Origin: Bdellovibrionales bacterium | GTDB lineage: Bacteria > Bdellovibrionota > Bdellovibrionia > Bdellovibrionales > JAGQZY01 | Direction: 5' to 3' | Assembly (NCBI GenBank): GCA_041736775.1 | Contig: JBGSSY010000232.1 | Coordinates: 1-37,027, forward strand | DNA: 37,027 nt | Shown: in pieces, positions 13,302-34,110 of the stretch | How positions within the stretch are numbered: position 1 is the stretch's first letter | How the letters are laid out: every line of letters begins with the position of its first letter | Made by a program: the position numbers and the translations under genes | The notes under the pieces: generated by a model | Told to the model about the DNA's origin: nothing | The model's database searches: none | The model's input: the letters and a program-made list of their open reading frames with translations, nothing else

Positions 13302-14006
13302 TTATTTTCCTACTAAGGGTTGAAGTTTAGGCTCCTGAGGAAGACCACCAAAGGCTGTGGATAGACTTTCATACTGAGTCTTAAACTGAGCAGACTCTAG
13401 TTTCCCTTGCCTATTCTTCATGGCAATATCTTCGCCGAGCATTTTTAGCATCATCGAATTAGTTCTCAAAACTTGGGTGCTGACACTTATCAAAACTGCA
13501 ACAGACTGTGCAGTCAGTTTGGCAGCCCCATTCTGGTTGACCACTTGCGAGTGGGCCATAATCCTTCGACTTTCTTCATCGGCTTGATCTGCAAAATTAA
13601 ATAAGGCTCCATTCATGGAAATACTTTCCGCTACAGACTGATCGTGCGCTTGCTGAAGCCTTGCCTCAGCTGTTTCTGGAACAACCCCATACAAATCTTC
13701 GATCACAGCGAGCACCTGATCTGCATCCGCTAGGCTTCCATAGATTCCCGGATTAAATTTAGGGTTAATCATATGAATGATTGAAAGCCCATGTTTAATC
13801 CCAGCATTGATATCCTTTAGAATCCCCAGGGTGTCGCTGCTAGTAGATAGAATCTGTTTGAGCTGAATTAATTGCTGGATTGCATTTGCTAAAATTTTGA
13901 CCAGTACCACTACGTCTCCACCAAAGAGATCTGCTTTTGCTGGCTTAGGAGTACCAATCGCCACCACTAGAACGCTTATAATTAAAAAATGTTTTAATCG
14001 CTTCAA
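13302..14006 (-). CDS. TrbJ/VirB5-like secreted T4SS protein
   Basis: TTG at 14006 is preceded by GGGAGG and lies 1 nt after the virB4 stop. It gives LKRLKHFLIISVLVVAIGTPKPAKA (signal peptide) and then a helical protein. The track's GTG start at 14087 would overlap virB4 by 80 nt. Confidence 0.45.
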   Translation of the reverse strand: MKRLKHFLIISVLVVAIGTPKPAKADLFGGDVVVLVKILANAIQQLIQLKQILSTSSDTLGILKDINAGIKHGLSIIHMINPKFNPGIYGSLADADQVLAVIEDLYGVVPETAEARLQQAHDQSVAESISMNGALFNFADQADEESRRIMAHSQVVNQNGAAKLTAQSVAVLISVSTQVLRTNSMMLKMLGEDIAMKNRQGKLESAQFKTQYESLSTAFGGLPQEPKLQPLVGK

Positions 14007-14007
14007 A

Positions 14008-16515
14008 CTAGCCTCCCTTGGGTTGCGAAATACCCTGAGGGTAAGTCTTGGATGCTTCGAGGATGGCGTCCTTAAGGCACAAACCACCCGTTGTAAGACT
14101 ATTTAGGTAGTTGTTGTCAGAGGCATCACTGGTAGCCAGCCAATACTCCATAGGGGAGGGATGAATCTGTATGACTTGGCTTTCTAAGGCTTCAATCAAA
14201 AACCCCTCAGAATAGAACCCTTTCTTTTGTTTCAGGGATTGAATCAGCTCAAGCTCTTGGTCATTGATCTTCAAAGACTTTTTCAGAATTTCAATGTCGC
14301 CCCTTTGTAACATAAGAATTTTTGTCGAAGTGTTGTTCAAGATGGCTGATCCAATAGGGGAGTTCGCAATCTCTTCAACACCTTGGGTGATAAAGGTAAT
14401 TCCAGAACCAGTCTTTCTTAAAGTTCGCGCTGCGTATTCCATAAAGCTTGCTGCCGCTTGAGATTTTAAAAGTTCCCATGCTTCATCCAGAATGATTCGC
14501 TTTTTGACTGAACGATCTCCTTCCACTTGAGATAAAATAAAATCAGTAAGGGTTAGAATCATCACACTTTGTAAATCTGGATATTGAGACAAGCCTTTTA
14601 AATCAAAAGAGCAAATATCAGCATTGGTTCTTAAAGCTCCGTATCCATCAAGAAGTTTTCCGTAAGGGCGATCTCCTGTCCAAATGTAGAGCATCTTTGC
14701 AAGCCTCTTAAGATTGTCGTCTTTTGAAAGCGACAATCTTTTTTCGAGGTCACTTAAGATTGGAACTTCATTCTTCTTCTTTTTATCTTCATAAAGATCA
14801 ATGATTTCTTTTTCGAGTTGAACTTTAGAAAGCTTATCTAGTTTATCAAGTCCTTCTTCTGTAACCATGCACTCAACCATCGAGATCAAAGATTTAATCT
14901 TTTGATTGCTTGGGCCCTGTTCTATTTCTTGAATATGAAAAGGATTAATTTTGTATTTCTCAGATAAATCCATTTCAATGTACTGACCATCTAAGGCTTC
15001 AGTCAGTTTTTTATAAGACCCACCAATATCAATGACAAATACCTTAAGGCCTCGCGCCATCTCTTGAAGTAAAATACAGTTATTTAAAAAACTCTTTCCT
15101 GATCCAGAAGATCCAGTCACAAGACAGTTGTAGTTATTAAGTTTCGAATCAAAAGGATCAAAGCTTACAAGACCATTTAATCTATTTCTAAAAAGCACTA
15201 CGGGATTTGGATCACCTTTTCTTGGGCCATAGATCGGAAGAAAGTCAGCCAAGTTGTTAGTTTTCATTTTTTTTGCACGTTCAAGCTTTACAGGAGCCAT
15301 TGGGAAATTGCCCTTGATGACCTTCCAAGATCCTACAGTCTCTTCTAAGGCTTCCGCCCCTTGGAGGGATCGAAATCGTGATAAAACTTCACGCACTTGT
15401 TTGTTAAGAAGTTTTTCACCTTCTGCTGAAGCCTCTTCTTTTAAGATTAAATTCATCTGAACTGAATAAATTCTTTGACCTGTATTTAATAACTCACGGA
15501 TTAACTCTTCAGTGGCTGACAGTTTTGATTCGTTCTCTAAGTCAGTAGCTTTACCACCACTTGTTGCGGCAAGGGAGTGAGCCATTTTTCTCTTTTGCTG
15601 GAGCTTTTCCATTTCCGAAGCTTGGAAGGGAACATAGATCGAAAGTAGTAAAGAATAATGAAATGGCATTCTTAAAAAACTACTGAGTTGTCCTGCGAAG
15701 GTGTTCTCGGGCAGAGTTTTAAGACTTATGATTCGATGGTAGTGTTGATCTAAGGTGAACTGCTTAAGACTCAAAACCAAATCCCCAAAAACCAATTGCT
15801 CTCTGGGTGAGCTGTTCGACAGCCACTTTTCTTCTAGTTTAATTGAAGCTTCGACTTCTTTTTCAGTCGTGGTAATTAGTCTTGGTGCCGGAAGTTCTTC
15901 ACTTCGTTTTGGATTAAAGAACTTATAAAGATCGGTGATGAAGTCAGTCTTTGTTAAGTCAATCGTTTCTAGGCCAAGACTGTTGAATGATGACTTAAGA
16001 GATTCCATATCCTGAGAAATAGAATCCATAAGGTCCGAATACAAATCTAAACCTATTTTTTCAAACTCTTCTTGTTTCTTAAAAATGGACATAGTGCTTT
16101 TGCTCTCAACCTCTCGTCTTAAGAAAACCTTAAGCTTAGGTTTAAATAGTGCCCTTGATGCGATATCATTTATTAGAACCGAATCTCTTGAGTTCGCAAT
16201 TTCTTGAATAAGCGGGTGAAGAATTTTTGATCTTAAGTCTATGTGCTTTTTCGTAAGCTCGTGATAGTCTGAATCAACATCCAGAAAAAATTGTATGTGT
16301 GTCCCTTCAGAAACTGAGTTTAAGCAATTGCGTAAAGAGACAGTTAGGTTGTTTACTTCGTTGTCATCAAGGCATTCAATATCAATCACTTCTGTTTGAA
16401 AGCCCGTGACGATAGATGAGTCATTTAAAACAATATGTGAAATTGGGTGAGAGAAGAAGTCCCAGAAGGGGAGTTCTTCGCAGAGTGAGGATTCTTTTTC
16501 TTTAAATGCTCCCAT
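14008..16515 (-). CDS. VirB4/TrbE T4SS ATPase
   Basis: 835 aa, Walker A TGSSGSGKSF, Walker B RIILDEAWELL. AGGAGA RBS. Overlaps the VirB3-like gene. Confidence 0.9.
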   Translation of the reverse strand: MGAFKEKESSLCEELPFWDFFSHPISHIVLNDSSIVTGFQTEVIDIECLDDNEVNNLTVSLRNCLNSVSEGTHIQFFLDVDSDYHELTKKHIDLRSKILHPLIQEIANSRDSVLINDIASRALFKPKLKVFLRREVESKSTMSIFKKQEEFEKIGLDLYSDLMDSISQDMESLKSSFNSLGLETIDLTKTDFITDLYKFFNPKRSEELPAPRLITTTEKEVEASIKLEEKWLSNSSPREQLVFGDLVLSLKQFTLDQHYHRIISLKTLPENTFAGQLSSFLRMPFHYSLLLSIYVPFQASEMEKLQQKRKMAHSLAATSGGKATDLENESKLSATEELIRELLNTGQRIYSVQMNLILKEEASAEGEKLLNKQVREVLSRFRSLQGAEALEETVGSWKVIKGNFPMAPVKLERAKKMKTNNLADFLPIYGPRKGDPNPVVLFRNRLNGLVSFDPFDSKLNNYNCLVTGSSGSGKSFLNNCILLQEMARGLKVFVIDIGGSYKKLTEALDGQYIEMDLSEKYKINPFHIQEIEQGPSNQKIKSLISMVECMVTEEGLDKLDKLSKVQLEKEIIDLYEDKKKKNEVPILSDLEKRLSLSKDDNLKRLAKMLYIWTGDRPYGKLLDGYGALRTNADICSFDLKGLSQYPDLQSVMILTLTDFILSQVEGDRSVKKRIILDEAWELLKSQAAASFMEYAARTLRKTGSGITFITQGVEEIANSPIGSAILNNTSTKILMLQRGDIEILKKSLKINDQELELIQSLKQKKGFYSEGFLIEALESQVIQIHPSPMEYWLATSDASDNNYLNSLTTGGLCLKDAILEASKTYPQGISQPKGG

Positions 16516-18724: not shown

Positions 18725-19171
18725 ATGAAGAAGAAACAGCATGATTTAGCAGATAAAATAAAGTCATTAAGAAAGGCTAAAGAGATTACTCAAGCCGAAC
18801 TTGATGAGATGGCACAGTTGCCGAAGTCTTCCGTCTCAAAAATAGAGAATGGTAAGAGAGAAGCAACGGCTAATGAGCTGGTTCGAATCGCTCATTGTTT
18901 AGGTGTTAATTTAAATGTTTTTTCTTCAAGTGATGATGCTTTTGTTTACGCCGAAGAAATTAAAGTGATCGAAGCTTTACGCGAGATTCCTTTTGATGAC
19001 TACCAGCGTTTAATAAAAACATTAGAAGCTCAAGTTTATTTTACATCGAAAGATGTGGGGAAAGAAAAAAAAGAATATTTGCAAGAACTCGTAGCCGTCC
19101 TCTCAAGACAGTCATCATCAGATCAAAGGCCGCGAAGCAATCATGCAGATAGGGTGAGGATAAGAAAGTAA
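18725..19171 (+). CDS. XRE-family HTH transcriptional regulator
   Basis: LRKAKEITQAELDEMAQLPKSSVSKIENGKREATANELVRIAHCLGV is a classic Cro/C1-type HTH. Divergent from the transfer-gene strand. Confidence 0.8.
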   Translation: MKKKQHDLADKIKSLRKAKEITQAELDEMAQLPKSSVSKIENGKREATANELVRIAHCLGVNLNVFSSSDDAFVYAEEIKVIEALREIPFDDYQRLIKTLEAQVYFTSKDVGKEKKEYLQELVAVLSRQSSSDQRPRSNHADRVRIRK

Positions 19172-19196: not shown

Positions 19197-20327
19197 GTGG
19201 AAGTGGAAAAAGAAAATTGGGTGCCGAAGGAGCAGCCAAGCAGTCAAAAAAGTAGTGGGGAAGTGCAAGATACAACTTTAAAGGATTTGCCAAACATCAG
19301 GCTTCAGCCGGAGCAGATTGAAGAAATTCATGCAGATGAATATTCGCTAAAGCTATTCTATGCGACAAGAGTTCAGGCTCTTTCACTTGGGGAAGTGAAA
19401 AGAAGATTTCCTGAGCCTTCACCTAAAAAAGCATTATCAGTTTTAACTAGATATGTAGATTGCGGTCTTGTGCATATCACAAGTGAAGGAAAGTATTATT
19501 CAAACTTTCCAGAAAACTACATCAACTATTCAGATTATAAATATGACTCTGATCTTGAAGCCAAAAAAGACGCTAAGGTCTTTGAGATTATGAAAGAAAA
19601 TACTGGAAAGCCAGAATACTGGAAAACCAGAGCGTACTATTCAATTGATTCATTCTTTACACCAGAACAAACATTGGAGTTAAAAGCTATGTTCCAAGCC
19701 ATTAAATTTAAATCAAAACAATTTGCTCATGATAACGCTAAAAAAGGAAAAATAGATGGTCTAAATTTTAGAAGACTTAAATTTTACGACATGATTTTAA
19801 GTCTTTTGTTTGTCTTTTCTTTTGTTGCACAAACAAATTTTGCTCATGCTGGTAATGACCCCGGAGTAATTCAGCAATGGGCGCAGATGGATACAAATAT
19901 TTATCCACTAGCTGTCGATGTTCTGATCCAAAGAATGTATGAGTATCAGCCGTATGTTGCTGCGGGTGGGGGAAATGATCCGGGCCGTGCTTTGGTGCCA
20001 AATGGTATTAGAGCATTACCTTATAATCCTATGGGTGTGGTTAGATTCAATATGGATTCTTTTGTCGTGCAAGATTCAATTAACTTTAAAAGTGCATTGT
20101 CAGCAGGTGGTTATGATCCGGATTCTTCTATTTCTGCAGAAGAAATTGAAAGTTGTGAACAGGAGCTTATGGTATTTGATGGAGATCTGGGAAATGTTCA
20201 GGTTGATTGTCTCTATAATATAGAGAGAGTTTCAGTTGAAGAATGTTTCGGGGGCAATGAAGATCTGTGTAATCTCGTTCCAAAAATAAATTATATATAC
20301 AATTCTATTGGGACTTTCAATCAGTGA
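19197..20327 (+). CDS. hypothetical single-pass membrane protein
   Basis: GTG start after GGGGGGA. TM segment FYDMILSLLFVFSFVAQTNFAHA at mid-protein. The C-terminal half carries repeated GNDPG / GGGNDPG / GGYDPD motifs and paired cysteines. Confidence 0.5.
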   Translation: MEVEKENWVPKEQPSSQKSSGEVQDTTLKDLPNIRLQPEQIEEIHADEYSLKLFYATRVQALSLGEVKRRFPEPSPKKALSVLTRYVDCGLVHITSEGKYYSNFPENYINYSDYKYDSDLEAKKDAKVFEIMKENTGKPEYWKTRAYYSIDSFFTPEQTLELKAMFQAIKFKSKQFAHDNAKKGKIDGLNFRRLKFYDMILSLLFVFSFVAQTNFAHAGNDPGVIQQWAQMDTNIYPLAVDVLIQRMYEYQPYVAAGGGNDPGRALVPNGIRALPYNPMGVVRFNMDSFVVQDSINFKSALSAGGYDPDSSISAEEIESCEQELMVFDGDLGNVQVDCLYNIERVSVEECFGGNEDLCNLVPKINYIYNSIGTFNQ

Positions 20328-20651: not shown

Positions 20652-22187
20652 TTAGTTTCTCGATTTATATCCCTTAAATGACAGCTGAACTTTATCTAAA
20701 AGTGAGGCATTTGTTAGCTCGAATCCAGCTGTTGAGAGGCTATCCATCAAAGCTTGCCATACAGCACCACTTGAGCTGTTAAAAACTAAACTCATACATC
20801 CATTTCTTTTAAGTACACGATTCATTTCCTCAAAAGATTTTGTCATAAGATTTGAGTAATTATCTAAATCTTTGCCGCCTTTGCACGATTTGAGCGATTT
20901 ATTTACAACAGCTTCGTCCACAATTGATGTTGGATTACCAAGCCAAGCTTCTGCTATAAAATTGCAGTCTGCATAAAAAATATTCGCGCCGAAAGGTGGA
21001 TCTGTATAAATATAATCGATACTTGATTCATTTATTGTTTTCAAACTTGTGGCTGAGTTTCGATTTAACTTTACAAGTGAATTTGTTGAGTACTGGTTAA
21101 GAGAAGAGAAGTATTTGTACAGTGTATCGATCTTATTTGCAAAAATCTGATAGACGTTTCCTTCGCTGTAAAGCTGAGGGAAGTATAAAGTGCCAGTGAG
21201 TGGTCTATGGCCTCCTTTAGAATTGTATCTTCGCATCTTTGTCCCGTGCCAAGCTGTGTTTGTAAACGCAAGCATTAAAGCAGCTTGGATTCTCTGGTCT
21301 GCGATCTGAGTTATTTCTTGGTAAAGCGAAGTTAGTGCGAGCCAATTGGTGTCTGAGTAAAAATCTCTTAGTTTGGTTACATTTTGCAAATGTAATGCGG
21401 ACCTAATATGCATTTCACGATTAGCGTCAAATGGTGTATTCGCAATTTGATTAAATGAATTACAGCTACTAATTTTGGTTCTTGTCCTTTCAATAGGATT
21501 TTCTATTTCTTTGAGTTCAAGTCTACTAGACGTTTTTATTACTCCTGCTAGGGAGGCCCTTTTTTCAACAGCTTTTAGATTAGACTTACGATTTGATCTG
21601 TTGCAATTTGGACATTTTATAATCGATGGGACTTTGTAGTTTGGTGATTGTTTAGCTACTTCCCATGCGGAAATTTGTTTAGAGCAAAACTCACAAGAGA
21701 ATATGTCTGCAAAAACTAAGTAGCTAATTTCGCGTTCCGTACCATCAATTTTAGCAAAATAGGGTGATTTGTGTTTAAGTTTTTCAATTATAATATCAGA
21801 GATATGTTTTAATTTTACATGATCGCAGAATGCAACATGGTTGGCAGATAGATGAATTGCCAATGAGCCAATATCAGAAAGATATGCATTTCTTCCAGTT
21901 AATTTTGCAGCTAACCCCGTCATCCCGCTCCCACAAAATGGGTCTAAAATATTCTGGTTTTGCTTTGTGTTCGATAGGATTCTTTTTACAATATTATCTA
22001 CCGGTACTTTCGTTGGGTAAGAGTGTGTATTGTAGAAAATGCTTCCCTTACTACTGCCTAAGCCGAGTTTAAGGTCATATTTCATCTGGGTGTTGAAGAC
22101 TGTTTGATAAGACTCTAGATAACTATTCTGTGTATATATTTTATCAAAAAAAGTTATAGTCTTTTGGTTTAATTTTTGTTTCTTCAA
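20652..22187 (-). CDS. DNA (probably N6-adenine or N4-cytosine) methyltransferase with a zinc-ribbon insert
   Basis: HSYPTKVP...ILDPFCGSGMTG (AdoMet motif, aa 55-91). CEFC (165-168) and CPNC (192-195). IDYIYTDPPFG (catalytic motif IV, D396 = nt 21002-21000). TTG start with AGGAG 6 nt upstream. Confidence 0.85.
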   Translation of the reverse strand: MKKQKLNQKTITFFDKIYTQNSYLESYQTVFNTQMKYDLKLGLGSSKGSIFYNTHSYPTKVPVDNIVKRILSNTKQNQNILDPFCGSGMTGLAAKLTGRNAYLSDIGSLAIHLSANHVAFCDHVKLKHISDIIIEKLKHKSPYFAKIDGTEREISYLVFADIFSCEFCSKQISAWEVAKQSPNYKVPSIIKCPNCNRSNRKSNLKAVEKRASLAGVIKTSSRLELKEIENPIERTRTKISSCNSFNQIANTPFDANREMHIRSALHLQNVTKLRDFYSDTNWLALTSLYQEITQIADQRIQAALMLAFTNTAWHGTKMRRYNSKGGHRPLTGTLYFPQLYSEGNVYQIFANKIDTLYKYFSSLNQYSTNSLVKLNRNSATSLKTINESSIDYIYTDPPFGANIFYADCNFIAEAWLGNPTSIVDEAVVNKSLKSCKGGKDLDNYSNLMTKSFEEMNRVLKRNGCMSLVFNSSSGAVWQALMDSLSTAGFELTNASLLDKVQLSFKGYKSRN

Positions 22188-22351
22188 AATATTCTCCTGT
22201 TGAGTAAGGTTAACAGGGTTGAATAATTGAGTATTTTTTAAAATATATTTAACTGAACTTAAGTCTCATAAAACCAGCTCTTTGGCGAGTTGTTGCTTTT
22301 ACTGATCTTCTAGCTTTTGAGTACGGTTGTTTTTCAATTTACACTCATAAT

Positions 22352-22876
22352 ATGTTAAAACTACTAAGTGTGAAGCAGCTTCACGCTAATTTCATAGCTG
22401 ATCTAGAAAATCGAGTTGTTTCAACATCATCAATTACACAAAAACCACTTGATGTAATAGCTAGTCCACCAATGCGCAGCCTAAGAGTTTATTTGTATAA
22501 TTTAACTAAACCTCCTGGCGGAAGATCAGAGGATGAATACAAGATACAAATTATAATTCCAGGACAAGTGCGTGGCGAGAAAGGGAATTTTGACTTTTCC
22601 AAAGAAGATCATGTCGTGCTTTTGATAGGATATGAGCAAAATTTTGGAGTTTGGGCTCTCTGGGATGCTTATCTATATAAAGATATTTCCTATTCAAGAA
22701 ATGTACAAATTAAATCACATGCATTAATAAAAGCGGCTTCTTCTGGATTTGGCGAACAACAAAGAGAAACCAAAAATGGTTTAGAAACAGTTTTAACTTG
22801 TTCAAGAAAAAATCTAGCTGAAGCCGTTCAGAAAAGAATATCAATGTGGGTCAATGATCTTGTGAGCAAAATATGA
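22352..22876 (+). CDS. hypothetical protein, first gene of the nuclease-helicase operon
   Basis: 174 aa. Its stop overlaps the next start (ATGA). No catalytic motif recognised. Possibly a DNA or modification reader, which is speculation. Confidence 0.5.
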   Translation: MLKLLSVKQLHANFIADLENRVVSTSSITQKPLDVIASPPMRSLRVYLYNLTKPPGGRSEDEYKIQIIIPGQVRGEKGNFDFSKEDHVVLLIGYEQNFGVWALWDAYLYKDISYSRNVQIKSHALIKAASSGFGEQQRETKNGLETVLTCSRKNLAEAVQKRISMWVNDLVSKI

Positions 22877-25020
22877 CCCTTCAAGATCTTAAACTTCTCT
22901 TTTGTTATGACTCTGGTCCAAATGATCTGGCGGAGGAATTTTATATTCCATGTATGAAAAACTCACAAAGATATGATAGAGCTGTTGGTTTTTTTTCTAG
23001 CTCAATTTTTCAGATGAATTGGCGAGGTCTTCGTTATTTCTTAAAAAACAATGGACTTATTAGAATCGTATGCTCTCAACACATGCAACTAAAAGATGTT
23101 AAAATTATGACATCGACCAAAATTAATGCACAGAATGATATTCACGATGGTTTAATTAAAGAAATTGATAAACTTATGGAGAATGAATCTGGTCGAGCGG
23201 CTTTAGTAGTTTTTTCTTATCTCATCTCAACTGAAAGACTGAAGCTGAAGATTGCGGTTCCCGAGTCTTCATTAAACTCTAGTTCATTGTCTATCTTTCA
23301 TTCAAAAGTAGGTATTTTTACTGATGAAGTGGGTAGTAAGGTAGTTTTTAAGGGATCATCAAACGAATCGAATGGAGCTTTTTCTAAGGATGGAAACGCC
23401 GAGACTGTAGATGTTTATTGTTCTTGGATTAACCCTAACGAAAGTAAAAGAGTAGAAAAAGAATGCCAAAACTTTGAAAACTTATGGAAAAATGAATTTA
23501 CAGGATTAAGGGTGTTTGAATTTCCTGAGGCGATTAAGCAAAAAATATTAAAAATTTCTGACGGGAAAAATATAAATGATTTCCTGAAAATTCTTGAGAA
23601 TTTACCCAATGAAGACGATTTTGAAAAGATAAATATAGATGATTTATGCCTTTCTGTTAATAAAAAATTTTCGATGAGCTTACCCCTAAGGGAGCATCAG
23701 ATCAAATCTTTAAAAGAGTGGAATCAAGCAGGTTTTAAAGGATTAATGGAGCATGCAACGGGTTCAGGTAAAACTGTTACGGGAATATCGGCGGCAATCA
23801 CTGCATTGAACAATGGTTTATCTGTGATTATTCTAGTACCTAGTGCATTACTACTTGCCCAGTGGAAACTTGAAATTCAGAAACTGATTGAGCCAACTCC
23901 GCCAGTTCTACTTTGTGGGGACGGGAATAGAACATGGAAAAATTTTGGTTTAAAAAATTGGGTATCCGAAGCGGAGAATCCAAGGATTGTAATCTCAACA
24001 ATTTCTACTGCATGTTCTGATGAGTTTATAGAACAATTGGACCAAAGTAGTGGTTGGACACTAATTGTGGACGAAGTTCATAGAATTGGAAGTATAGGCT
24101 GTGAAAAGTTTTTAAGATTAAATCCCGAATATAGATTGGGTTTGAGTGCTACACCTACGCGTGCAGGTGATCCTCTGGGAACTAAAAGAATTGTAGATTT
24201 TTTTCAGACAGTACTACCGACAAAATTTGGTTTGTCTGATGCAATTCGTTTAGGTGTATTAACGCCGTATCATTACTCAATTCGAACAGTCGAGCTTACT
24301 CAAGAGGAAATGGAGAAGTGGATATCAATTTCCAGAAAGCTTGCAGTTCTGAGCTCAGGGCAAGAATCAGGTGATTCTAATTGTATTGCTCAAATTGAAA
24401 GACTTTTGATTGAGAGATTTCGTATCGTAAAGGGTGCTGAAAATAAAATTGAAAAGGCAGTGAATTTGATAGCTGATAGATATAGTCAGGGCGACAGATG
24501 GATCGTCTATTGCGATTCAGTTTCCCAGCTTGAGAGTCTATTTGTAGGATTATCCCGAACTTCGATTACAGTTTCAAAGTATTACGCAGGTATGGCTGGT
24601 GATCAAAAGCAAACTTTAAGATTTTTTGAGCGGGTTGGAGGCGTGGTTCTATCAATTCGTTGCCTTGATGAGGGGATTGATATCCCCGCAGCTAGTCATG
24701 CGCTTATTATTGCAAGCTCTCAAAATCCGAGAGAATTTATTCAGAGGAGAGGGCGTGTCCTTAGAAAATCTCCTAACAAGTCTATTTCATATATTACTGA
24801 TCTAATCACGTTGCCGTCTCTAGATTATTTGGATGAAGAAGCAAAATCTTGCGGAAGGTTTATAACAGCTGAACTTGCAAGAGCATCTCTTTTTGCAAAA
24901 GACGCAATAAATCCAAATGTTACATTTGATATAGAAAGAATTGCTGAACGTTTTGCAATAAATATTAAAGAAAATTCTGAAGATGGAATTGAGAATGATT
25001 TGGAGGAAAATAATGAGTGA
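22873..25020 (+). CDS. HKD (phospholipase-D-family) nuclease fused to an SF2 (ResIII/DEAH-type) helicase
   Basis: N-terminal YDRAVGFFSSS and a single HKD motif HSKVGIFTD...GSSNES (H143 = nt 23299). Helicase motifs: ATGSGKT (I), LIVDEVH (II), SAT (III), QRRGRVLR (VI). Confidence 0.85.
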   Translation: MTLQDLKLLFCYDSGPNDLAEEFYIPCMKNSQRYDRAVGFFSSSIFQMNWRGLRYFLKNNGLIRIVCSQHMQLKDVKIMTSTKINAQNDIHDGLIKEIDKLMENESGRAALVVFSYLISTERLKLKIAVPESSLNSSSLSIFHSKVGIFTDEVGSKVVFKGSSNESNGAFSKDGNAETVDVYCSWINPNESKRVEKECQNFENLWKNEFTGLRVFEFPEAIKQKILKISDGKNINDFLKILENLPNEDDFEKINIDDLCLSVNKKFSMSLPLREHQIKSLKEWNQAGFKGLMEHATGSGKTVTGISAAITALNNGLSVIILVPSALLLAQWKLEIQKLIEPTPPVLLCGDGNRTWKNFGLKNWVSEAENPRIVISTISTACSDEFIEQLDQSSGWTLIVDEVHRIGSIGCEKFLRLNPEYRLGLSATPTRAGDPLGTKRIVDFFQTVLPTKFGLSDAIRLGVLTPYHYSIRTVELTQEEMEKWISISRKLAVLSSGQESGDSNCIAQIERLLIERFRIVKGAENKIEKAVNLIADRYSQGDRWIVYCDSVSQLESLFVGLSRTSITVSKYYAGMAGDQKQTLRFFERVGGVVLSIRCLDEGIDIPAASHALIIASSQNPREFIQRRGRVLRKSPNKSISYITDLITLPSLDYLDEEAKSCGRFITAELARASLFAKDAINPNVTFDIERIAERFAINIKENSEDGIENDLEENNE

Positions 25021-25204
25021 ACTTAAAGAGTTGGCATCGGTCTTAAAGCGAATATGGGATGATATGGAAGAAGATCAAAAAATTGATTTTGAGTTAGCGG
25101 AAAAGATTTTAATAGCTGAATCAGAGAATTTAGAAGATCCGCAAAGAGCCAAACAAGCTATTACTATGTTAGTTGAAGAGTATCTTGAAAATAAAGTGAG
25201 GTAA
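25013..25204 (+). CDS. small acidic protein (63 aa)
   Basis: ATG at 25013 after GGAGG, overlapping the helicase stop by 8 nt. 17 D/E versus 9 K/R by my count. The track's longer start at 24983 lacks an RBS. Confidence 0.5.
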   Translation: MSELKELASVLKRIWDDMEEDQKIDFELAEKILIAESENLEDPQRAKQAITMLVEEYLENKVR

Positions 25205-25205
25205 T

Positions 25206-27137
25206 ATGTTTAGGGTAAAAAAATTGATACTAAACGAGTTTGGACCATATAAAGGCAGGCAAGAGATTGTTTTCCCTGAAACAGATGGAGTGGTTGTTTT
25301 TTTTGGTGAGAACGGTCGTGGTAAAACCTCACTACTCAATGCTATTCGGTTCGTACTATTTGATCGGATTCTTGGTCGTGGATCTAGAACTGTTGATTAC
25401 AAAAATATTCTAAACTGGGAATCCGCAGCAGAAGGAAAAAAGGAGTTTTCAGTCGAATTGGAGTTCTCTTTCAATGATGAGGATTTTCATCTTATAAGAG
25501 TTTGTTTGCCATTTTCGGGTCCGTCTCAAAAAACAGAGACCTTTCTTAGGCGAAAAGGTGTGAGCCTTGCTCCTGATTTAGCTCAAAAAACAATATCCAA
25601 AATTATGCCAGAACAGGTTTCAAGATTCTTTCTGTTTGATGGTGAACTTCTTCAAGAATATGAAGATCTGCTTTTGGAAACAAATCAAAGTGTAGGCATT
25701 AAGGATGCTATCGAGAGAATACTAGGGGTACCAATTTTAACCAATGCGATTTCGCATTTACAAGACTCTTTAAGAGAAGCGAAGAGAACTGAAGCAAGGT
25801 CGCTAGAAAGTGTTAGTAAAACAAAACATATTGGTGAGGCGTTAAAGCAACTTCAAGAAATTGAATCATCGCTTGAAATTGACAAGAAACAGGTTGAGCG
25901 TGATTTAGCTCAAGCTAGGATTGAAAAACTCGCTTGTGAGTCGGTTATGCGAGAAAACGAAAAAGCTGGTGAAGTGATAGGAAGAAAAAGTGTCCTCGTA
26001 AGCGAAGTTAGAGACATGAAGGGCGACTTGGGACAGCTTGAAGCTGATCTTAGTCAGCAATCTAAGTTTATGTGGCTTATGCCGTTGAAGCAAAAAATTC
26101 AGGAGCACCTCAAACAATTACTTCTTGATCAAGACAAGATTATACAGGGTTTTGGAAATCAAGTGAAAGCTACGTTGGCAAAAAGAAGCGCACAGGAGGG
26201 GCACTGTGCTCTCTGTAGCACATCACTGATCGAAGGAATAAGAAAAGATTTAGATTTATTCGCGGATGGTATTCTTCAAGAAAATAATACTTCCATAAGT
26301 GGTATCCAAGTGAACGGAGGAAGGATACAAAAGCTACAAGATATTATTAGCAAGTCCGATACAAATTTTGTTCAACATTTAATCGAACAAATAAGGTTAA
26401 AGAAAAACAGAATCCATGAAAAAGAAATTGAAATTATTGACTTAGAAAAACAACTTATTGGTATAGATGAAAAAGAAATTTCATCTAGTAAGATAAGATT
26501 TGAGCGAGTAATAAAAGAGATATCTAATCTCGAATTGCAACTTAGCAAGATTCAAACAGATCTCGCAACCAAGCGAGTTGAAATTCAGGAATATCAAAAG
26601 AGTCTTGGTAAAGTTAGTGAAAAAAGTAGTTCAAAGGACACTTTGAGAAGATCTTTTTACGATCAACTTTTACAAGTTTTTGGTTCTGGATTAGATATGT
26701 ATAGAGATCGACTGCGACATCATGTAGAAAAAGAATCTACAGCATTATTTCGCGGATTTTCCAGTGATAAGGACTATGAAAAACTAAAGATTAATCAGAA
26801 CTACGGATTAACGATTGTACACCATGATGGAACGGAGATTCCGGTTAGATCCGCTGGATTTGAACATATTGTTGCGCTTTCTTTAATGGGGTCTCTTCAA
26901 AAAAATGCCCCGCTGAGGGGTCCAATTTTTATGGATAGTCCGATGGGTAGATTGGATAGAGCTCATAAAGTTAATGTCACCAAAGGATTACCACTTATGT
27001 CTACTCAGGTTGCTTTGCTGGTATATGAAGACGAGATAAGTCAAGACGATGTTGTTGAGATATTGGGATCAAAATTATTGAAAAGATATCATTTGAAAAG
27101 AATTTCTGCGCGGCACACCATCATAGAGGAGAAATGA
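25206..27137 (+). CDS. DndD-type SMC/Rad50-like ABC ATPase
   Basis: N-terminus LNEFGPYKGRQEIVF...FFGENGRGKTSLLNAIRFVLF (Walker A). FFLFDGELL (Q-loop region). Long heptad-like middle with CALC at aa 334-337. C-terminus IFMDSPMGRLD...QVALLVYEDEI matches the DndD family D-loop/Walker B region as I remember it. Confidence 0.75.
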   Translation: MFRVKKLILNEFGPYKGRQEIVFPETDGVVVFFGENGRGKTSLLNAIRFVLFDRILGRGSRTVDYKNILNWESAAEGKKEFSVELEFSFNDEDFHLIRVCLPFSGPSQKTETFLRRKGVSLAPDLAQKTISKIMPEQVSRFFLFDGELLQEYEDLLLETNQSVGIKDAIERILGVPILTNAISHLQDSLREAKRTEARSLESVSKTKHIGEALKQLQEIESSLEIDKKQVERDLAQARIEKLACESVMRENEKAGEVIGRKSVLVSEVRDMKGDLGQLEADLSQQSKFMWLMPLKQKIQEHLKQLLLDQDKIIQGFGNQVKATLAKRSAQEGHCALCSTSLIEGIRKDLDLFADGILQENNTSISGIQVNGGRIQKLQDIISKSDTNFVQHLIEQIRLKKNRIHEKEIEIIDLEKQLIGIDEKEISSSKIRFERVIKEISNLELQLSKIQTDLATKRVEIQEYQKSLGKVSEKSSSKDTLRRSFYDQLLQVFGSGLDMYRDRLRHHVEKESTALFRGFSSDKDYEKLKINQNYGLTIVHHDGTEIPVRSAGFEHIVALSLMGSLQKNAPLRGPIFMDSPMGRLDRAHKVNVTKGLPLMSTQVALLVYEDEISQDDVVEILGSKLLKRYHLKRISARHTIIEEK

Positions 27138-27138
27138 T

Positions 27139-27492
27139 ATGTCAAATAAAGACAAGGTAACGATTGGGCTTACTCAAGGTGGTAAGGCATGTTTAGACCG
27201 AATTTTAAAATTAGGGTGGTTTAACCATGATATGGATTTAGCAAAATTCGCTATGGCTTTTGCTATAGCAAGAAAAGTTATTCCGGGTGAAGCGAAAGGT
27301 GCGGCCACTGTTTGGAATGTTGGTTCACTTGACTCCGATGGTTCTGTATCTACAATTATCCAAGAGCTTTGTGGCGAACGAGAATCTCCGTACAAATTAG
27401 CCGAACATCTAATAGATGAGGGCTTGAAATTAATTGTTGAGCAAATTAATGCTAGACCTGAAATTAGCTTAGAAGAATTATTAGCTACATAG
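27139..27492 (+). CDS. small protein in the DndE position (DndE-like?, unverified)
   Basis: 117 aa with a GAGGAG RBS; the start is 1 nt after the ATPase stop. Its size and its position directly after a DndD-type gene mirror dndD-dndE. Sequence similarity to DndE could not be verified by eye. Confidence 0.4.
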   Translation: MSNKDKVTIGLTQGGKACLDRILKLGWFNHDMDLAKFAMAFAIARKVIPGEAKGAATVWNVGSLDSDGSVSTIIQELCGERESPYKLAEHLIDEGLKLIVEQINARPEISLEELLAT

Positions 27493-27504
27493 TTATTATT
27501 AAAA

Positions 27505-27541
27505 ATCTCCTTTTTTAAATAGGAGATAATTTTTTGTTTTT
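27505..27541 (+). terminator. rho-independent terminator of the five-gene operon
   Basis: ATCTCCT (27505-27511), 9-nt loop, AGGAGAT (27521-27527), followed by AATTTTTTGTTTTT. Confidence 0.65.
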
Positions 27542-27855: not shown

Positions 27856-28257
27856 ATGACAGAACTTGAGTACCAAACAAACTTGACTAGCTACCTGAAT
27901 AAACGGCTTGCACGTGTCAGAGCTTGGCCTGTGAAGGGACGTAAAACAACCTTCCTCGGCCGTAGTCTTTATCCTGATCTTGAATTTGAGTCAGATATAG
28001 CGGGAAGGTTAGATGTTATTGCTATTGTTGAACTTAAAGTTAGAGGAAGATTAAATCTTTATCAACCTATGTTATATGCAATTTTAAAAAATGCTCCAGC
28101 CTACTGTATAGTCGATGGGAAAAGAAGAACTTCGATTAGATGGTTCATCAATCCTCTTTCTTCAAAAAAAAATTTAATAAATCAAAAAAAGTTTAGCAAG
28201 GTACTTTATGAAATAAAAATAGCAATAGAGGACTTTAATTATAATAATTTTATTTAG
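27856..28257 (+). CDS. small PD-(D/E)xK-fold nuclease-like protein
   Basis: 133 aa. YPDLEFES ... LDVIAIVELKV gives a PD...D...ExK arrangement. No obvious SD sequence. Confidence 0.45.
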   Translation: MTELEYQTNLTSYLNKRLARVRAWPVKGRKTTFLGRSLYPDLEFESDIAGRLDVIAIVELKVRGRLNLYQPMLYAILKNAPAYCIVDGKRRTSIRWFINPLSSKKNLINQKKFSKVLYEIKIAIEDFNYNNFI

Positions 28258-28265
28258 GAGAGAAT

Positions 28266-29549
28266 ATGAAAAAAAATGGGTTTGATAAACAGAAAAGACT
28301 TTTTGAATTAATTGATCAGCTTATAGGAGATCTTCCAAAGCTAGTAAGGAAAGGGAACGGTGCTCCAAAAGCCGCAGAGGCTAAAACTCGTCACGATTTC
28401 GAAGATGTAAGGACCGGTGCTAAAATTACTCATGTGCATTTAGAGCTAAGAGATTTTATTAAAGTATCATCACTGAATGATAATTTTTTTCAACGAAAAC
28501 TACAAAACCATTTAACTGATAAGATTTATAAGAACTTAATAATATCTATTTTACAAGGTCACCTCATTCCAGAGCTTAGAGTTGCGGTTCTTATGCACAA
28601 ATCTAAAGTAACGGCCTTTGATAAAAATGAATTTTTAGCCGCAACTTATAAGGTGTCAATAATTGATGGTCTTCAGCGATATGGATGCTTTTTGATTGCA
28701 ATGTTTCTTGCTGCAAGAGGACAGGATTTGGTTACTGAAAATATAATTAGTCCAGCTGTATATAAAGAGTTTGAGCAATACCTCGGGGTTGACTCTTTAG
28801 AAAAAGTTCTCGCTTCAAAAATTAGATTAGAGGTTTATTACAATCTAGAAATTAAAGACTTACTGAAATATATGATTATATTTAACACAGCTCAAAGAAG
28901 AATGTCTTTGAACCATCAGCTTGAAATCATGGAAGGTACTATACTTCAAAACTTAAAAGAAAATCATAAAGCAAATTTTATTCGAGATACTGATGCTGGC
29001 TCTAAGAAAAACCAATTCACAGGTGCAGACTTAGTATTGGCAATACAAGCTTACCTTCAGCAAGACCATACAATATCTAAAAATGCGACCACTGATGATC
29101 TATTTCATAGCATGAAAAGTGACGATAAGATTGTTGATGATAAAATTGATGAAATTTGCAAAGGCATCTCTTTAATAACAAATAAATTACATCCTGTGGT
29201 TAAAGAGTTTTACGAAGAAACAGAGGAAAGTAAATACATGAACATTCTGCCGGGTAGCACGAGCCAATTTATGGTTCCTATGATGGCTAGTCTCGGTACT
29301 TATACCGAGCGAGAGGGGAATGATCAAAAGTTGATAGTTAGATCAATAAATCGCATTTTGAATTTATATAAAGAGGGGAATGATGTTTTTGAGCTTGAGG
29401 AGTACTATAAGATCACTGACGAAATTAAAAGTAGTCGAGGTGCTACTATAAAAAATATGGCAGAGAGGGCGTTTAGAGATTTTTGGTTCGATAAAACAGC
29501 TACCTCACTAAACTGGCAATATGCTTATAAGACTATTCGCAATAACTAG
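28266..29549 (+). CDS. ParB/sulfiredoxin-fold protein of the DndB / DUF262 (DGQHR/DGQQR) type
   Basis: VSIIDGLQRYGCF (DGxQR motif) and downstream IIFNTAQRRMSLNHQ (FxxxN...L motif). AGGAGAG RBS, 8 nt after the previous gene. Confidence 0.55.
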   Translation: MKKNGFDKQKRLFELIDQLIGDLPKLVRKGNGAPKAAEAKTRHDFEDVRTGAKITHVHLELRDFIKVSSLNDNFFQRKLQNHLTDKIYKNLIISILQGHLIPELRVAVLMHKSKVTAFDKNEFLAATYKVSIIDGLQRYGCFLIAMFLAARGQDLVTENIISPAVYKEFEQYLGVDSLEKVLASKIRLEVYYNLEIKDLLKYMIIFNTAQRRMSLNHQLEIMEGTILQNLKENHKANFIRDTDAGSKKNQFTGADLVLAIQAYLQQDHTISKNATTDDLFHSMKSDDKIVDDKIDEICKGISLITNKLHPVVKEFYEETEESKYMNILPGSTSQFMVPMMASLGTYTEREGNDQKLIVRSINRILNLYKEGNDVFELEEYYKITDEIKSSRGATIKNMAERAFRDFWFDKTATSLNWQYAYKTIRNN

Positions 29550-29590
29550 ATGTGCTAAATTGTATTCAAATATTTAAGGATTAATATCTA

Positions 29591-32500
29591 ATGCAAAAGA
29601 AAAAAAATGAAAAATTAGTTTTTTCGCCAACTGATTTGAGTCGATACTTCGAGAGTAAGTTTTCATCTTGGATGGATCATTATGAGAAGTTGTTTGAAAA
29701 CAGTGGACCATTAGGTAAGATTCATAGAAATCCACCCGATGATTTATTGTCACTTTTAAAACAGCAGGGTTTGGAGCACGAATCTAGGGTAATTGATCGG
29801 GAAAAAATAAAAAATAAGTTCATAAAAATTGATGGTGAATCCACTGAGGAGAAAATAAAAAATACAATCTCGGCTATGGGGGCAGGTTTTGATTTAATAT
29901 ATCAAGGAGCATTAAGTTCTGAAACATTTTTTGGCTATGCAGACATTCTTCAGAAGAAGAAGGGTACTTCGTCTTTGGGAGAACATTACTACGTTCCTTA
30001 TGATGTAAAATTATCATCTGTTGCTAAACCAACTGCAATAATTCAGCTTCTTACCTATTGTGATTTACTAAAGTCTATCCAAAATAAAATTCCAGATGAG
30101 ATTGGTGTAATTACCAAAGATGAATCGTTGCATTTGTTCAGTGTATCTAGTTTTTATCATTTTTTCTGTTTTTTCAGAGATGATTTTCTTAATTTTCATA
30201 GATATTTTGACCCTTCGAGACAACCTTTGCCTGAAAAGACAAAAGATCATCGTGACTGGTCAATCTATGCAAAAAAAATACTTCATGAAAAAGATGATGT
30301 GGCATTAACAGCTAAGCTTAGAGCTACTCATTTAGAAATTCTTAAACAAGAGGGCATATTCACTTTAACTAAACTTTCGGAGTTCGAGGGGGTTAAGTTG
30401 AAAGGAATTCCCGATGAGACGCTTACCACTTTAAAAAAGCAGGCTAAGCTACAAGTCGCATCAAAGGGGAAGAGACCCCCGCTTTACGAAGTATTGCCTC
30501 ATAGTGGTAGAATGGGTCTGTCGATGTTACCGGAGCAAACGGATGACGATATTTTTTTTGATATGGAAGGATATCCTCTAATAGGAAAATCAGGTTTAGA
30601 ATATTTGTATGGCTTTGCAAATAGAAGTCGTAAGTATGAAACTATATGGGCGTATTCTACCTCAGATGAAGCAGTTTCGTTCAAAAAATTTGTAGAGCTT
30701 ATTCATGTTAAATGGATGTCAAACAGATCAATTAAAATTTATCATTATGGTCATTATGAACCGTCAACTTTAAAGAGATTAATGGGTCAATATGGTTTAT
30801 GCGAAAGAATGATAGATGATTTACTTCGGTCAGAAGTGTTTGTAGATCTTTATCAAATTTTGAAACAGTCCTTACTTATTGGGACATATTCATATAGTCT
30901 TAAGTCAATAGAATCCCTCTATTATCCTGAAAGAGAAACTATTGTTTCTAGCGGTGCGGACTCAGCTGTTGAGTTTTCTAAGTGGCTTATTGAAGGTGGT
31001 GATCCAAGAAAGTCTAAATTTTTGAGTCGGATCGAAGATTATAATCGAGATGATTGTTTTTCTACTCTTGATCTTGAGCGTTTTTTAAGAAAGATAAAGA
31101 AAGAGATGGGAATAAATTATATTCCAATTAATTCAGATGAGAAATTAAAAAGAGAAGAAGATCCTGACGCCTTAAAGACAATTTGTTCGTCTCAAGCAAA
31201 AAGAATGCTTGAGTCCATTGATAAAAAGTTTTTAGGATTAAGTTTTGAAAATGCCGATATACCATCGTACGTCTGTGAACAGATAGCACATTGCTTGGAT
31301 TTTGTAAGAAGAGAGGAAAATCCTGAATGGTGGGATTTTTTTTCATTACATGATATTTCACAAGAAGATTTGCGTGAATCCCCAGACGCCCTTATTAACG
31401 TTAGAATTAAAAGTATTTCAGGCAAAGAGTATATTTGTGTTTTTGATTTAGCTCAAGATTCTAAATTTCACAAAAGCTCAAGCGTAAGAGTTCTGGAAAA
31501 CCAATCTCCAAATGAAAAATTAAATGTTGAAAATATTGATTATTCTCGTGGAGAGATTGTCTTGTCTGGAAAATTTTCATCTTTGCCTAATGATTATTTT
31601 ACTCTTGCTCCAGGTAAAGTTTTTTTTAATAAAGACATGATTTTGAAAGCATTGCTAAAGATTGCATTGAGCTTTGATAAAACAAAAAAATATTTTGGTT
31701 TGAAAAAATGTGTTCACGATATTCTGATCAAGTCGAGTCCAGATATTAAAGGTCGGAAATCAGATGAACCTCTAATTAGTGGTCAAAATGCAATTCCAGA
31801 ATTAACAGACCTTGTCTTGAAGATGAATAATACTATTTTGTGCATTCAGGGGCCTCCTGGAACGGGAAAGACTTACACGGGTTCACGGATTATTAGTGAA
31901 TTGTTTAAGAGAAATAAGGTGGTAGCTATTTCAAGCAATTCTCACAAGGCAATGAATCACTTAGCTCTCAAAGTATCTGAGATGAATCCTAGGTCTAGAA
32001 TAATTAAGCTATCATCTGGTGATAAACTTAAAGAGGATAAAATACAGTTTGAAGGAACTAATATTGAAGTTAAAACAACAAGTGTAAAACAAAGTGAACT
32101 TGGCTCCTACGATTTAATAGTTGGTACTGTTTACTATCTCTCAAAACTTGAAAATGCTGTAGATTACTTGTTTATTGACGAGGCTACACAAGTTGCTCTG
32201 CCTAATCTCTTGGCTATGGCGAACTGTACAAGTAATATTTTACTATTAGGTGATCAGATGCAGCTTGAGCAACCTATCAAAGGGGCCCATCCAGGGGAAA
32301 GCGGTAACTCTGCGCTTGTCCACTTAACAAACGGCAGAAAAACTGTAGAACGGAGTTTTGGAATTTTTTTAGAAACTACTTATAGAATGCATCCAGAAAT
32401 TTGTTCATTTATTAGTGAGGAGTTTTACGATTCACGATTGTTTTCACATCCTGATACAGTGAAACAAAAAATTCTTTGGAATTTACATAAACAAGCGGGT

Positions 32501-32995
32501 CTTTTATATATGCCTATTGAGCATATTGGAAACACTCATGCTTCGCTTGAAGAAGTTAAATGTATTAAAGATTTATTTAGTGAAGCACTTAAATCTGAAT
32601 GGATTAACGAGAAAGGTGAGTCTAAGCTCGTGACCTATGAAGACATACTTATAGTTGCACCTTACAATCACCAAGTAGCACTTTTAAAGGAAGCTTTGCC
32701 AGATAAAGCTAGGGTTGGAACTGTTGATTTATTTCAAGGGCAGGAGGCAGCTATCGTTATTACTTCAATGTGTTCGTCTACATTAGAGGATGCGCCAAGA
32801 GGGCCTAATTTTTTACTTAATAGCAATAGAATAAACGTTGCGATTTCTCGGGCTAAAGCATTGTCTATTGTCGTCGGATCTCCAAGTCTAGCCAGTGGAC
32901 AGAGTTCATCTATTGCATCTATGAAATTGATTTCTACTTATTGCCATTTAGTTATGGTGTATTTTGATAAATTAAAAATTAAGAACAAAGGTTAA
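29591..32995 (+). CDS. RecB-like (TM0106-family) PD-(D/E)xK nuclease + RNaseH-like domain + SF1B (Upf1/DNA2-like) helicase
   Basis: N-terminus FSPTDLSRYFESKF, GLEHES, GYADIL...YVPYDVKLS. Middle DIFFDMEGYP, IYHYGHYEPSTLKRL, YNRDDCFST. C-terminus GPPGTGKT (I), FIDEATQ (II), GDQMQL (III), TYRMHPEI, VDLFQGQEA (V), RINVAISRAK (VI). Confidence 0.8.
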   Translation: MQKKKNEKLVFSPTDLSRYFESKFSSWMDHYEKLFENSGPLGKIHRNPPDDLLSLLKQQGLEHESRVIDREKIKNKFIKIDGESTEEKIKNTISAMGAGFDLIYQGALSSETFFGYADILQKKKGTSSLGEHYYVPYDVKLSSVAKPTAIIQLLTYCDLLKSIQNKIPDEIGVITKDESLHLFSVSSFYHFFCFFRDDFLNFHRYFDPSRQPLPEKTKDHRDWSIYAKKILHEKDDVALTAKLRATHLEILKQEGIFTLTKLSEFEGVKLKGIPDETLTTLKKQAKLQVASKGKRPPLYEVLPHSGRMGLSMLPEQTDDDIFFDMEGYPLIGKSGLEYLYGFANRSRKYETIWAYSTSDEAVSFKKFVELIHVKWMSNRSIKIYHYGHYEPSTLKRLMGQYGLCERMIDDLLRSEVFVDLYQILKQSLLIGTYSYSLKSIESLYYPERETIVSSGADSAVEFSKWLIEGGDPRKSKFLSRIEDYNRDDCFSTLDLERFLRKIKKEMGINYIPINSDEKLKREEDPDALKTICSSQAKRMLESIDKKFLGLSFENADIPSYVCEQIAHCLDFVRREENPEWWDFFSLHDISQEDLRESPDALINVRIKSISGKEYICVFDLAQDSKFHKSSSVRVLENQSPNEKLNVENIDYSRGEIVLSGKFSSLPNDYFTLAPGKVFFNKDMILKALLKIALSFDKTKKYFGLKKCVHDILIKSSPDIKGRKSDEPLISGQNAIPELTDLVLKMNNTILCIQGPPGTGKTYTGSRIISELFKRNKVVAISSNSHKAMNHLALKVSEMNPRSRIIKLSSGDKLKEDKIQFEGTNIEVKTTSVKQSELGSYDLIVGTVYYLSKLENAVDYLFIDEATQVALPNLLAMANCTSNILLLGDQMQLEQPIKGAHPGESGNSALVHLTNGRKTVERSFGIFLETTYRMHPEICSFISEEFYDSRLFSHPDTVKQKILWNLHKQAGLLYMPIEHIGNTHASLEEVKCIKDLFSEALKSEWINEKGESKLVTYEDILIVAPYNHQVALLKEALPDKARVGTVDLFQGQEAAIVITSMCSSTLEDAPRGPNFLLNSNRINVAISRAKALSIVVGSPSLASGQSSSIASMKLISTYCHLVMVYFDKLKIKNKG

Positions 32996-34026: not shown

Positions 34027-34110
<84 letters not shown>

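Follow-up and report, generated by a model that had tools for sequence, protein, structure and literature searches.

A probable methylase-linked PbeABCD defence locus on an apparent integrative conjugative element of a Bdellovibrionales bacterium

The contig JBGSSY010000232.1 from a Bdellovibrionales bacterium (assembly GCA_041736775.1) was analyzed over positions 1 to 37,027, which are referred to as the window in the following, and carries a six-gene locus that is related to the PbeABCD anti-phage systems. Five of the genes lie on the forward strand at 22352-27541 and encode, in this order, a protein of the MTaX1 family (22352-22876, 174 amino acids, aa), the nuclease-helicase PbeA (22873-25020, 715 aa), a small acidic protein of the PbeB type (25013-25204, 63 aa), the ATPase PbeC (25206-27137, 643 aa), and a putative PbeD (27139-27492, 117 aa). 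The sixth gene encodes a DNA methyltransferase (20652-22187, 511 aa) and is transcribed from the reverse strand, i.e., divergently from the operon across an intergenic region of 164 bp (22188-22351). A preliminary description of this DNA, made from the sequence without database searches, had proposed the five-gene unit, and the list of open reading frames (ORFs) places all five genes at the coordinates given there. Direct reading of the sequence likewise reproduced the gene junctions: the MTaX1 and PbeA genes share an ATGA (22873-22876), the last 8 nt of the helicase gene are also the first 8 nt of the gene for the 63-aa protein (ATGAGTGA, 25013-25020), and one base each separates the stop and start codons of PbeB and PbeC (25205) and of PbeC and PbeD (27138). 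Three of the four internal starts are preceded by good Shine-Dalgarno sites, as had been described (GGAGG for the 63-aa gene, GTGAGG for the ATPase gene, GAGGAG for the 117-aa gene), and the site ahead of the second gene, encoding the helicase, is weak. The unit ends with a terminator-like hairpin on the forward strand (27505-27541), in which a stem of 7 bp closes a loop of 9 nt (ATCTCCT/AGGAGAT, 27505-27527) and a T-run follows to 27541. This hairpin, too, had been pointed out before, though it is modest on folding (-8.6 kcal/mol, z = -1.3 compared to shuffled sequences) and was not reported by a consensus terminator scan, probably due to the 8-nt limit that the scan sets for loops. It is plausible as an intrinsic terminator, albeit a modest and not a strong one. 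The next gene on the forward strand begins about 310 bp past the operon end.

PbeA, the product of the second gene, matches the PADLOC model of the same name over nearly its full length (E = 5.6e-194), with residues 3-681 aligned to positions 2-665 of the 672 in the profile. Pfam detects ResIII, Helicase_C and, weakly, PLDc_2, and the sequence contains a single HxK motif (H143/K145), a GSGKT motif at 297-301 and a DEVH motif at 400-403. Motifs, Pfam and PADLOC are thus in agreement with the earlier domain assignment, a PLD nuclease with a single HKD motif joined to a superfamily 2 (SF2) helicase. Relatives were collected in a PbeA scan of one genome per species, which gave at least 581 matching stretches; the best 80 of these were fetched with 10-kb flanks, and their six-frame ORFs were searched with the proteins of the window. 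Among the 79 PbeA relatives compared, which share 35-58% identity, the HKD residues H143, K145 and N164 are invariant, D151 is kept in 77 and S162 in 78, and the helicase part keeps its motifs I, II, III and VI. Invariance of the HKD residues at this level of divergence speaks for selection on the catalytic site. Nuc and BfiI also carry a single HKD motif per chain and form their active site by dimerization. By analogy with these two enzymes, for which it is established, the preliminary description had proposed that the nuclease has to dimerize, which is a reasonable assumption for PbeA, given the invariance of H143, K145 and N164. No solved structure of either PbeA or PbeC was found. Among solved structures, the helicase core of PbeA is nearest to XPB/Rad25, and the match to PDB 7clg, which we take to be SauUSI, an enzyme dimerizing through its PLD domain, spans the region from the HKD motif through the helicase (1.2e-19). 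Further PADLOC matches of PbeA are mREase_IV (2.9e-15), PLD_Helicase (8.3e-18) and phospholipD_antiphage (1.6e-25); a search of the contig index for the exact PbeA sequence returned no match.

The 643-aa protein is best matched by the PADLOC model PbeC (E = 8e-164, residues 3-611), and much more weakly by PADLOC DndD (1.2e-49). Against TIGR03185, the NCBIfam equivalog model for DndD, it scores 144.5 bits (E = 4e-42), with a cutoff of 245.85. The previous label of a “DndD-like” ATPase was therefore correct insofar as the protein is a DndD-related coiled-coil ABC ATPase, but the best match is PbeC and the score remains below the DndD cutoff. Judged by its sequence, PbeC is a coiled-coil ABC ATPase that is sister to DndD. 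It has a Walker A motif at residues 34-41 and, at mid-length, a CxxC motif formed by C334 and C337 (CALC, 334-337). With the consensus CPTCxQ, this zinc hook is invariant in 77 of 77 relatives and is thus of the CxxC form throughout this clade, even though the family is named after CxC. Conservation extends to the Walker A, signature and Walker B/D-loop motifs. In a structure comparison, the N-terminus and head of PbeC resemble Rad50. DndD proper was rejected as an identity for this protein on account of the sub-cutoff score, the presence of the CxxC hook, and the absence of DndC and DndA from the window. A true SMC protein was rejected as well, considering the total length of 643 aa with a CxxC at residue 334 and no hinge; the match to Pfam SMC_N (36.8 bits) is below the cutoff of 40. 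SMC proteins proper have a hinge at the apex of their coiled coil, which extends over some 800-1000 residues (PMC10853773). In the phosphorothioate modification machinery, DndD and DndE form the same kind of pair as that proposed for PbeC and PbeD, in which the coiled-coil ABC ATPase is joined by a protein with tandem ribbon-helix-helix units. However, DndD has no zinc hook (PMC10853773), whereas PbeC has one, and in the window the partner of PbeC is a nuclease-helicase instead of the machinery for sulfur insertion, DndA, DndB and DndC being absent.

The two small proteins of the operon were assigned in a different way. With 17 D/E and 9 K/R residues among its 63 aa, and hence a net charge of -8, the product of the third gene is indeed acidic, as had been noted, and by position, size and charge it is a protein of the PbeB type. 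In 69 of the 80 loci, the PbeA and PbeC genes enclose a PbeB-like ORF (median 69 aa) with ends that overlap both neighbouring genes, and its product is negatively charged in 64 of these 69. phmmer with the PbeB of the window found a counterpart in only one of the 80 loci, yet the copies can be aligned over their full length across the clade and display a recurring pattern of hydrophobic and acidic residues (e.g., L..L..L..IR....P.IP..L...I). This pattern suggests a small folded helical protein in this clade, while the literature portrays PbeB as a fast-evolving protein that is disordered for the most part. For the 117-aa protein, a homology search with the single sequence found two proteins, and an alignment derived from the loci was needed to obtain more: homologues were gathered from the related loci, their alignment was searched against a protein database, and the result served as input for an AlphaFold2 model. 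The model (predicted local distance difference test score, pLDDT, 88.9) contains the succession strand-helix-helix twice, which corresponds to two ribbon-helix-helix units. When compared to the PDB with Foldseek, its top 14 matches are all DndE (4lrv, 5wtu, 7x4e), with probabilities of up to 0.99 and template modelling (TM) scores of 0.53-0.71. The next matches are chains of the F-plasmid relaxosome, presumably TraY, which is another tandem ribbon-helix-helix protein. The protein, which had been left without an assignment, can accordingly be described as a predicted DndE-like tandem ribbon-helix-helix protein, i.e., a putative PbeD.

The divergent gene encodes an N6_N4_Mtase methyltransferase (Pfam, 9.5e-20; PADLOC MTase_II, 3.2e-113) with circularly permuted motif order: motif I (DPFCGSG) is located at residue 84 and motif IV (DPPF) at residue 396, with a Cys4 zinc ribbon in between. 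Its TTG start codon has an AGGAG site of its own, and the gap of 164 bp to the operon, known from the preliminary description, is obtained when counting from this start. The promoters of the methylase gene and of the operon are presumably located in this gap, and promoter-like matches occur on both of its strands, but since the scan found 23 such matches region-wide compared to 26 expected from shuffled sequences, the matches in the gap demonstrate no promoter. The first gene of the operon, previously listed as an unknown protein of 174 aa, encodes a member of Pfam PF20296, MTaX1 (methylase-associated X1; 4.6e-20). A single-sequence AlphaFold2 model of this protein was unusable (pLDDT 35), and a profile built from 30 MTaX1 proteins retrieved no relative from the PDB.

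The check for co-conservation that the preliminary description had called for yielded a clear picture: in the best 80 loci, the operon genes are strongly conserved as a set, as is their association with a methylase. The closest PbeA relative among these loci belongs to a Bdellovibrionaceae genome (58% identity). PbeC is encoded directly downstream of PbeA in 79 of 80 loci, the exception being a truncated contig, and PbeD follows PbeC in at least 66. The number of PbeC/DndD-like ORFs (80 in 79 loci) leaves room for a second adjacent one in at most one locus. The gene order A-B-C-D with overlapping or near-overlapping junctions recurs in 79 of the 80 loci, which argues that the five-gene layout in the window is not due to chance, and the junctions together with this conserved order bear out the reading as one tight operon. 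The MTaX1 gene is located directly upstream of the PbeA gene, usually overlapping it, in 52 loci. About 73 of the 80 loci have a DNA methylase gene next to the operon, and these methylases are of at least three architectures: 66 encode PF01555 methylases, among them 53 of the beta class with SPPY/F and 13 of the permuted type with DPPF, like that of the window, most of which also carry a zinc ribbon; seven further loci have methylases of the D12 class or related ones. No methylase was detected in the remaining seven loci, six of which are truncated contigs. In one locus (L079, 8649-9992), MTaX1 is fused to an N6_N4 methylase, i.e., the methylase module is physically linked to the operon. The features of the methylase-linked subtype, an adjacent DNA methylase and an MTaX1 gene, are thus present in the window, and their pairing recurs in the relatives.

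The related loci also display several variations of this theme. The permuted DPPF methylase is usually encoded by two tandem genes (L010, L011, L016, L023, L032, L050, L077), or by a fused gene, whose product has about 1250-1350 aa and contains the DPPF motif twice (L017, L021, L024, L030), but occurs as a single copy in the window, in its closest relative (L001) and in L012. A single copy may reflect a different symmetry of the recognition site or the marking of one strand. In some loci with MTaX1 and PbeABCD, a D12-class (Dam-like, adenine) methylase is encoded directly upstream (L072:8264-9145, 2.6e-30), and a cluster of six loci (L029, L031, L035, L036, L044, L070) has an upstream methylase with a weak or no Pfam match in the two members that were scanned. 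For the CxC/DndE-anchored systems, PMC10853773 mentions no methylases other than cytosine methylases, whereas their relatives analyzed here include D12-class adenine methylases, and from these gene arrangements the methylase module therefore appears to be more freely exchangeable than stated there. MTaX1 itself has a long N-terminal extension in some actinobacterial loci (L010:8902-9990), which also contain a second gene with an MTaX1 domain downstream of PbeD (L010:14664-15647, reverse strand). In 23 loci without MTaX1, a protein of about 860-920 aa is encoded directly downstream of PbeD (e.g., L056:14622-17198, L040:14639-17392), which combines a domain resembling the RNA polymerase alpha C-terminal domain with sigma-70 region 4. 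This protein is absent from all 52 loci that contain MTaX1, and since the two never occur in the same locus, it may represent an alternative accessory component to MTaX1.

The locus in the window is very probably a methylase-linked PbeABCD system, also known as a CxC-type ABC ATPase/DndE-anchored defence system, and it is a new example of a described anti-phage system, not a new system type. The genes pbeABCD were defined in the haloarchaeon Haloterrigena jeotgali A29 as part of a dndCDEA-pbeABCD system, in which they are co-transcribed and encode a PLD and helicase protein, a protein of 66 aa, an AAA_23/SMC-like ATPase, and a protein of 152 aa (Xiong et al., 2019; PMC6459918). All four genes are needed for an about 10^4-fold protection against the virus SNJ1, and protection depends on phosphorothioate (PT) modification of the host DNA (PMC6459918). 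The same study counted 320 pbeAC pairs without dndCD nearby among a total of 553, and 155 of these 320 are located near methyltransferases (PMC6459918). A later re-annotation describes PbeA as an HKD nuclease and SF2 helicase, PbeB as a fast-evolving small protein, PbeC as a “CxC”-type zinc-hook ABC ATPase that is sister to DndD, and PbeD as a cognate of DndE; a cytosine-5 methylase or one of the circularly permuted N4 type is present in some of the systems, often together with MTaX1 (PMC10853773). This form with methylase and MTaX1 was described by comparative genomics (PMC10853773, Fig. 4A iv), and CxC/DndE-anchored systems of this kind are traced there to earlier work (Krishnan et al., 2020, as cited in PMC10853773).

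In comparison to the A29 system, the window has the same order of the four genes in one transcription unit, PbeA with HKD and SF2 domains, a PbeB of similar size (about 66 aa in A29), a coiled-coil ABC ATPase as PbeC, and a small DNA-binding PbeD. The differences are that the type system is haloarchaeal and pairs with phosphorothioation genes, whereas the window is of bacterial origin and pairs with a divergent methyltransferase and MTaX1, and that PbeD comprises 152 aa in A29 and 117 aa here. The dndCDEA pairing was not found, as the scanned ORFs of the 37-kb window include no gene for Dnd or Ssp modification. Compared to the CxC/DndE-anchored systems with methylase and MTaX1, the gene content of the window is identical, and nothing essential is different. 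Other classes of multi-gene or nuclease-helicase defence are more distant. SauUSI-type Type IV enzymes share with PbeA the single-HKD N-terminus followed by an SF2 motor, but these enzymes, like the Res subunits of Type I/III systems, act alone or with Mod/HsdMS and possess a target-recognition domain of their own, which PbeA lacks. A stand-alone SauUSI-type enzyme was rejected on these grounds and because PbeA is accompanied by PbeC in 79 of 80 loci, by a PbeB-like protein in 69 and by PbeD in at least 66. The BREX-related systems centred on Hma/DUF499, as well as DISARM, are likewise multi-gene systems in which a methylase occurs together with an ATPase and a helicase. The former pair the helicase HmaA with a methylase and a DUF499 ATPase. 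Their matches in the window, PLD_Helicase for PbeA and DUF1156_MTase for the methylase (about 1e-10; PADLOC 5.8e-10), are weak and partial, with much lower scores than for the Pbe models; no DUF499 ATPase is among the PADLOC families listed, and the ATPase present is of the Rad50/DndD-like PbeC class. DISARM consists of the helicase DrmA, DrmB with DUF1998, the PLD protein DrmC and a methylase; it was rejected, since no Drm model is among the PADLOC families listed (all 22 for PbeA, the top 25 for PbeC and the methylase) and Pfam detects no DUF1998.

A 15-nt direct repeat (AAAAAATTGGTCGGG) occurs at 3100-3114 and 34027-34041; its left copy adjoins a tyrosine integrase gene (3210-4310, reverse strand) and its right copy overlaps the 3' end of a tRNA-Pro(tgg) gene (34034-34110, reverse strand). 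Genes for type IV secretion, encoding a coupling protein, TrbI, CagX, VirB8 and VirB4/TraC, extend over 6304-16515, and the GC content is lower in the about 31 kb between the repeat copies. Given the repeats, the integrase, the tRNA-Pro gene, the type IV secretion genes and the GC content, the Pbe locus appears to be carried as cargo by an integrative conjugative element that measures about 31 kb and is inserted at the tRNA-Pro gene. Other genes with a putative defence function are found on the same island. A gene for an AbiEii nucleotidyltransferase toxin (10163-11107, reverse strand, 3.2e-30) lies among the type IV secretion genes and is overlapped upstream by an ORF (11037-11687, reverse strand) without Pfam match, which is a candidate for an AbiEi-type antitoxin. 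Three defence-like genes follow the operon on the forward strand (27856-32995): a 133-aa ORF without matches, in which a D...ELK pattern reminiscent of PD-(D/E)xK nucleases can be recognized by eye, a 427-aa protein matching PADLOC DzbA (2.8e-28), and a 1134-aa protein that combines a TM0106 RecB-like nuclease (3.8e-57) with an IGHMBP2/MkoA-like SF1 helicase. They were rejected as members of the Pbe system, as they occur in 0, 0 and 1 of the 80 loci, respectively, and are probably separate systems. On the other side, an ORF of 376 aa (19197-20327, forward strand, GTG start) without Pfam match separates the methylase gene from the gene for an HTH_3 regulator (18725-19171).

The best explanation overall, and a quite likely one, is a methylase-linked PbeABCD system that is carried as cargo by a conjugative element and acts in a restriction-like manner, although for the restriction-like mechanism itself the chances are about even. 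The divergent methyltransferase would mark the host DNA. PbeC would dimerize via its zinc hook and, together with PbeD, scan DNA and recognize a site, as proposed for DndD-DndE, and MTaX1 might help to read the methylation state. Once an unmodified target is found, the translocase-nuclease PbeA would be licensed, and two PbeA molecules would have to join their single HKD half-sites into one active site, in the manner of Nuc and BfiI; small acidic PbeB could be a required regulatory or bridging subunit. The outcome would be the restriction or the replication arrest of unmethylated incoming DNA. Several points weigh against this reading. DNA cutting by PbeA is not demonstrated, as the one published experiment saw none, viral DNA cleavage being undetectable in the type pbe system (PMC6459918). 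No experiments on the methylase-linked form were found in the literature, where the role of MTaX1 is a conjecture (PMC10853773). The window covers 37 kb of the host genome, and dnd/ssp genes could be located elsewhere. Moreover, PbeB has no match in the profile libraries of PADLOC, Pfam and NCBIfam; the same applies to PbeD, for which a profile search against PDB and Pfam yielded nothing significant either, so that the assignment of these two proteins rests on position, size, charge and predicted fold. The E-values of the Foldseek matches between PbeD and DndE are weak, at 0.1-0.8, which is common with folds of this small size.

How cleavage could be brought about, or whether the DNA is cleaved at all, leads to two further proposals, both of them rather unlikely. 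According to the first, the zinc hook of PbeC would bridge two DNA-bound PbeA motors, whose single HKD half-sites would meet only once both motors have moved in from unmethylated sites. In its general form, an ATPase that brings two nuclease subunits together had already been suggested in the preliminary description; the idea is plausible, compatible with the hook and close to published proposals. If true, such bridging by PbeC would be distinct from the logic of classical Type I/III enzymes, and from that of the non-cleaving PT-linked Pbe system that has been reported. According to the second proposal, the system arrests unmodified DNA without cleavage: translocation, looping or clamping would halt its replication, with PbeA as motor and roadblock and PbeC as a Rad50-like tether. 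Consistent with this, SNJ1 DNA was intact on a Southern blot up to 6 h post-infection while its replication was blocked (PMC6459918), and the Rad50-like head and the zinc hook of PbeC suit a tethering function. However, the complete invariance of H143, K145 and N164 among the PbeA relatives points to selection on the catalytic site, and cleavage has been argued for on the same grounds of HKD conservation (PMC10853773).

An improbable alternative is a suicide response, in which PbeB restrains the nuclease until a phage factor removes or modifies it, whereupon PbeA would cut host and phage DNA alike and methylation would be of secondary importance; the death of the infected cell would then shield the population. 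This possibility was put forward in PMC10853773, and the small, acidic and fast-diverging PbeB, which phmmer recovers from a single locus even though its copies are alignable, would suit the part. Yet deletion of pbeB abolished protection and caused neither toxicity nor constitutive activity, and PT-modified virus escaped, which implies that self and non-self are discriminated by modification (PMC6459918); the near-universal adjacent methylase likewise fits the marking of self-DNA. Still far less likely, the methyltransferase would be an independent or orphan part of a restriction-modification system that happens to lie beside a PT-dependent Pbe system, with cognate dnd or ssp genes elsewhere in the genome. 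The type system does depend on dndCDEA (PMC6459918), and the visible 37 kb contain no dnd genes; but against coincidence stand the adjacent methylases of several unrelated families in about 73 of the 80 loci, the MTaX1 gene that overlaps the start of PbeA in 52, the methylase fusion in L079, the near-complete absence of an adjacent dndD paralogue, and the location on a mobile element, for which a self-contained module is to be expected. Finally, the claim of the preliminary description that a restriction-like PLD-helicase paired with a DndD-type ATPase is not a described system type does not stand up, because, although the gene content is as it was described, every component has a published counterpart, with full-length matches to the PADLOC models PbeA and PbeC and the same gene set, including methylase and MTaX1, in the literature (PMC6459918; PMC10853773).

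As a methylase-linked PbeABCD system, the locus has little discovery value in itself, because the system type is already represented in PADLOC and in two papers. The branch to which it belongs appears to be common, given that all of the best 80 of at least 581 loci, except for the seven without a detected methylase, are of this kind. It bears on a point on which these papers disagree, i.e., whether PbeA cuts DNA, with no cleavage seen in one (PMC6459918) and cleavage predicted in the other (PMC10853773). With its compact layout of six genes, its bacterial host, its location on a mobile element and its single methylase gene, the locus described here would be well suited as a first model for experiments on Pbe systems that do not depend on phosphorothioate modification.

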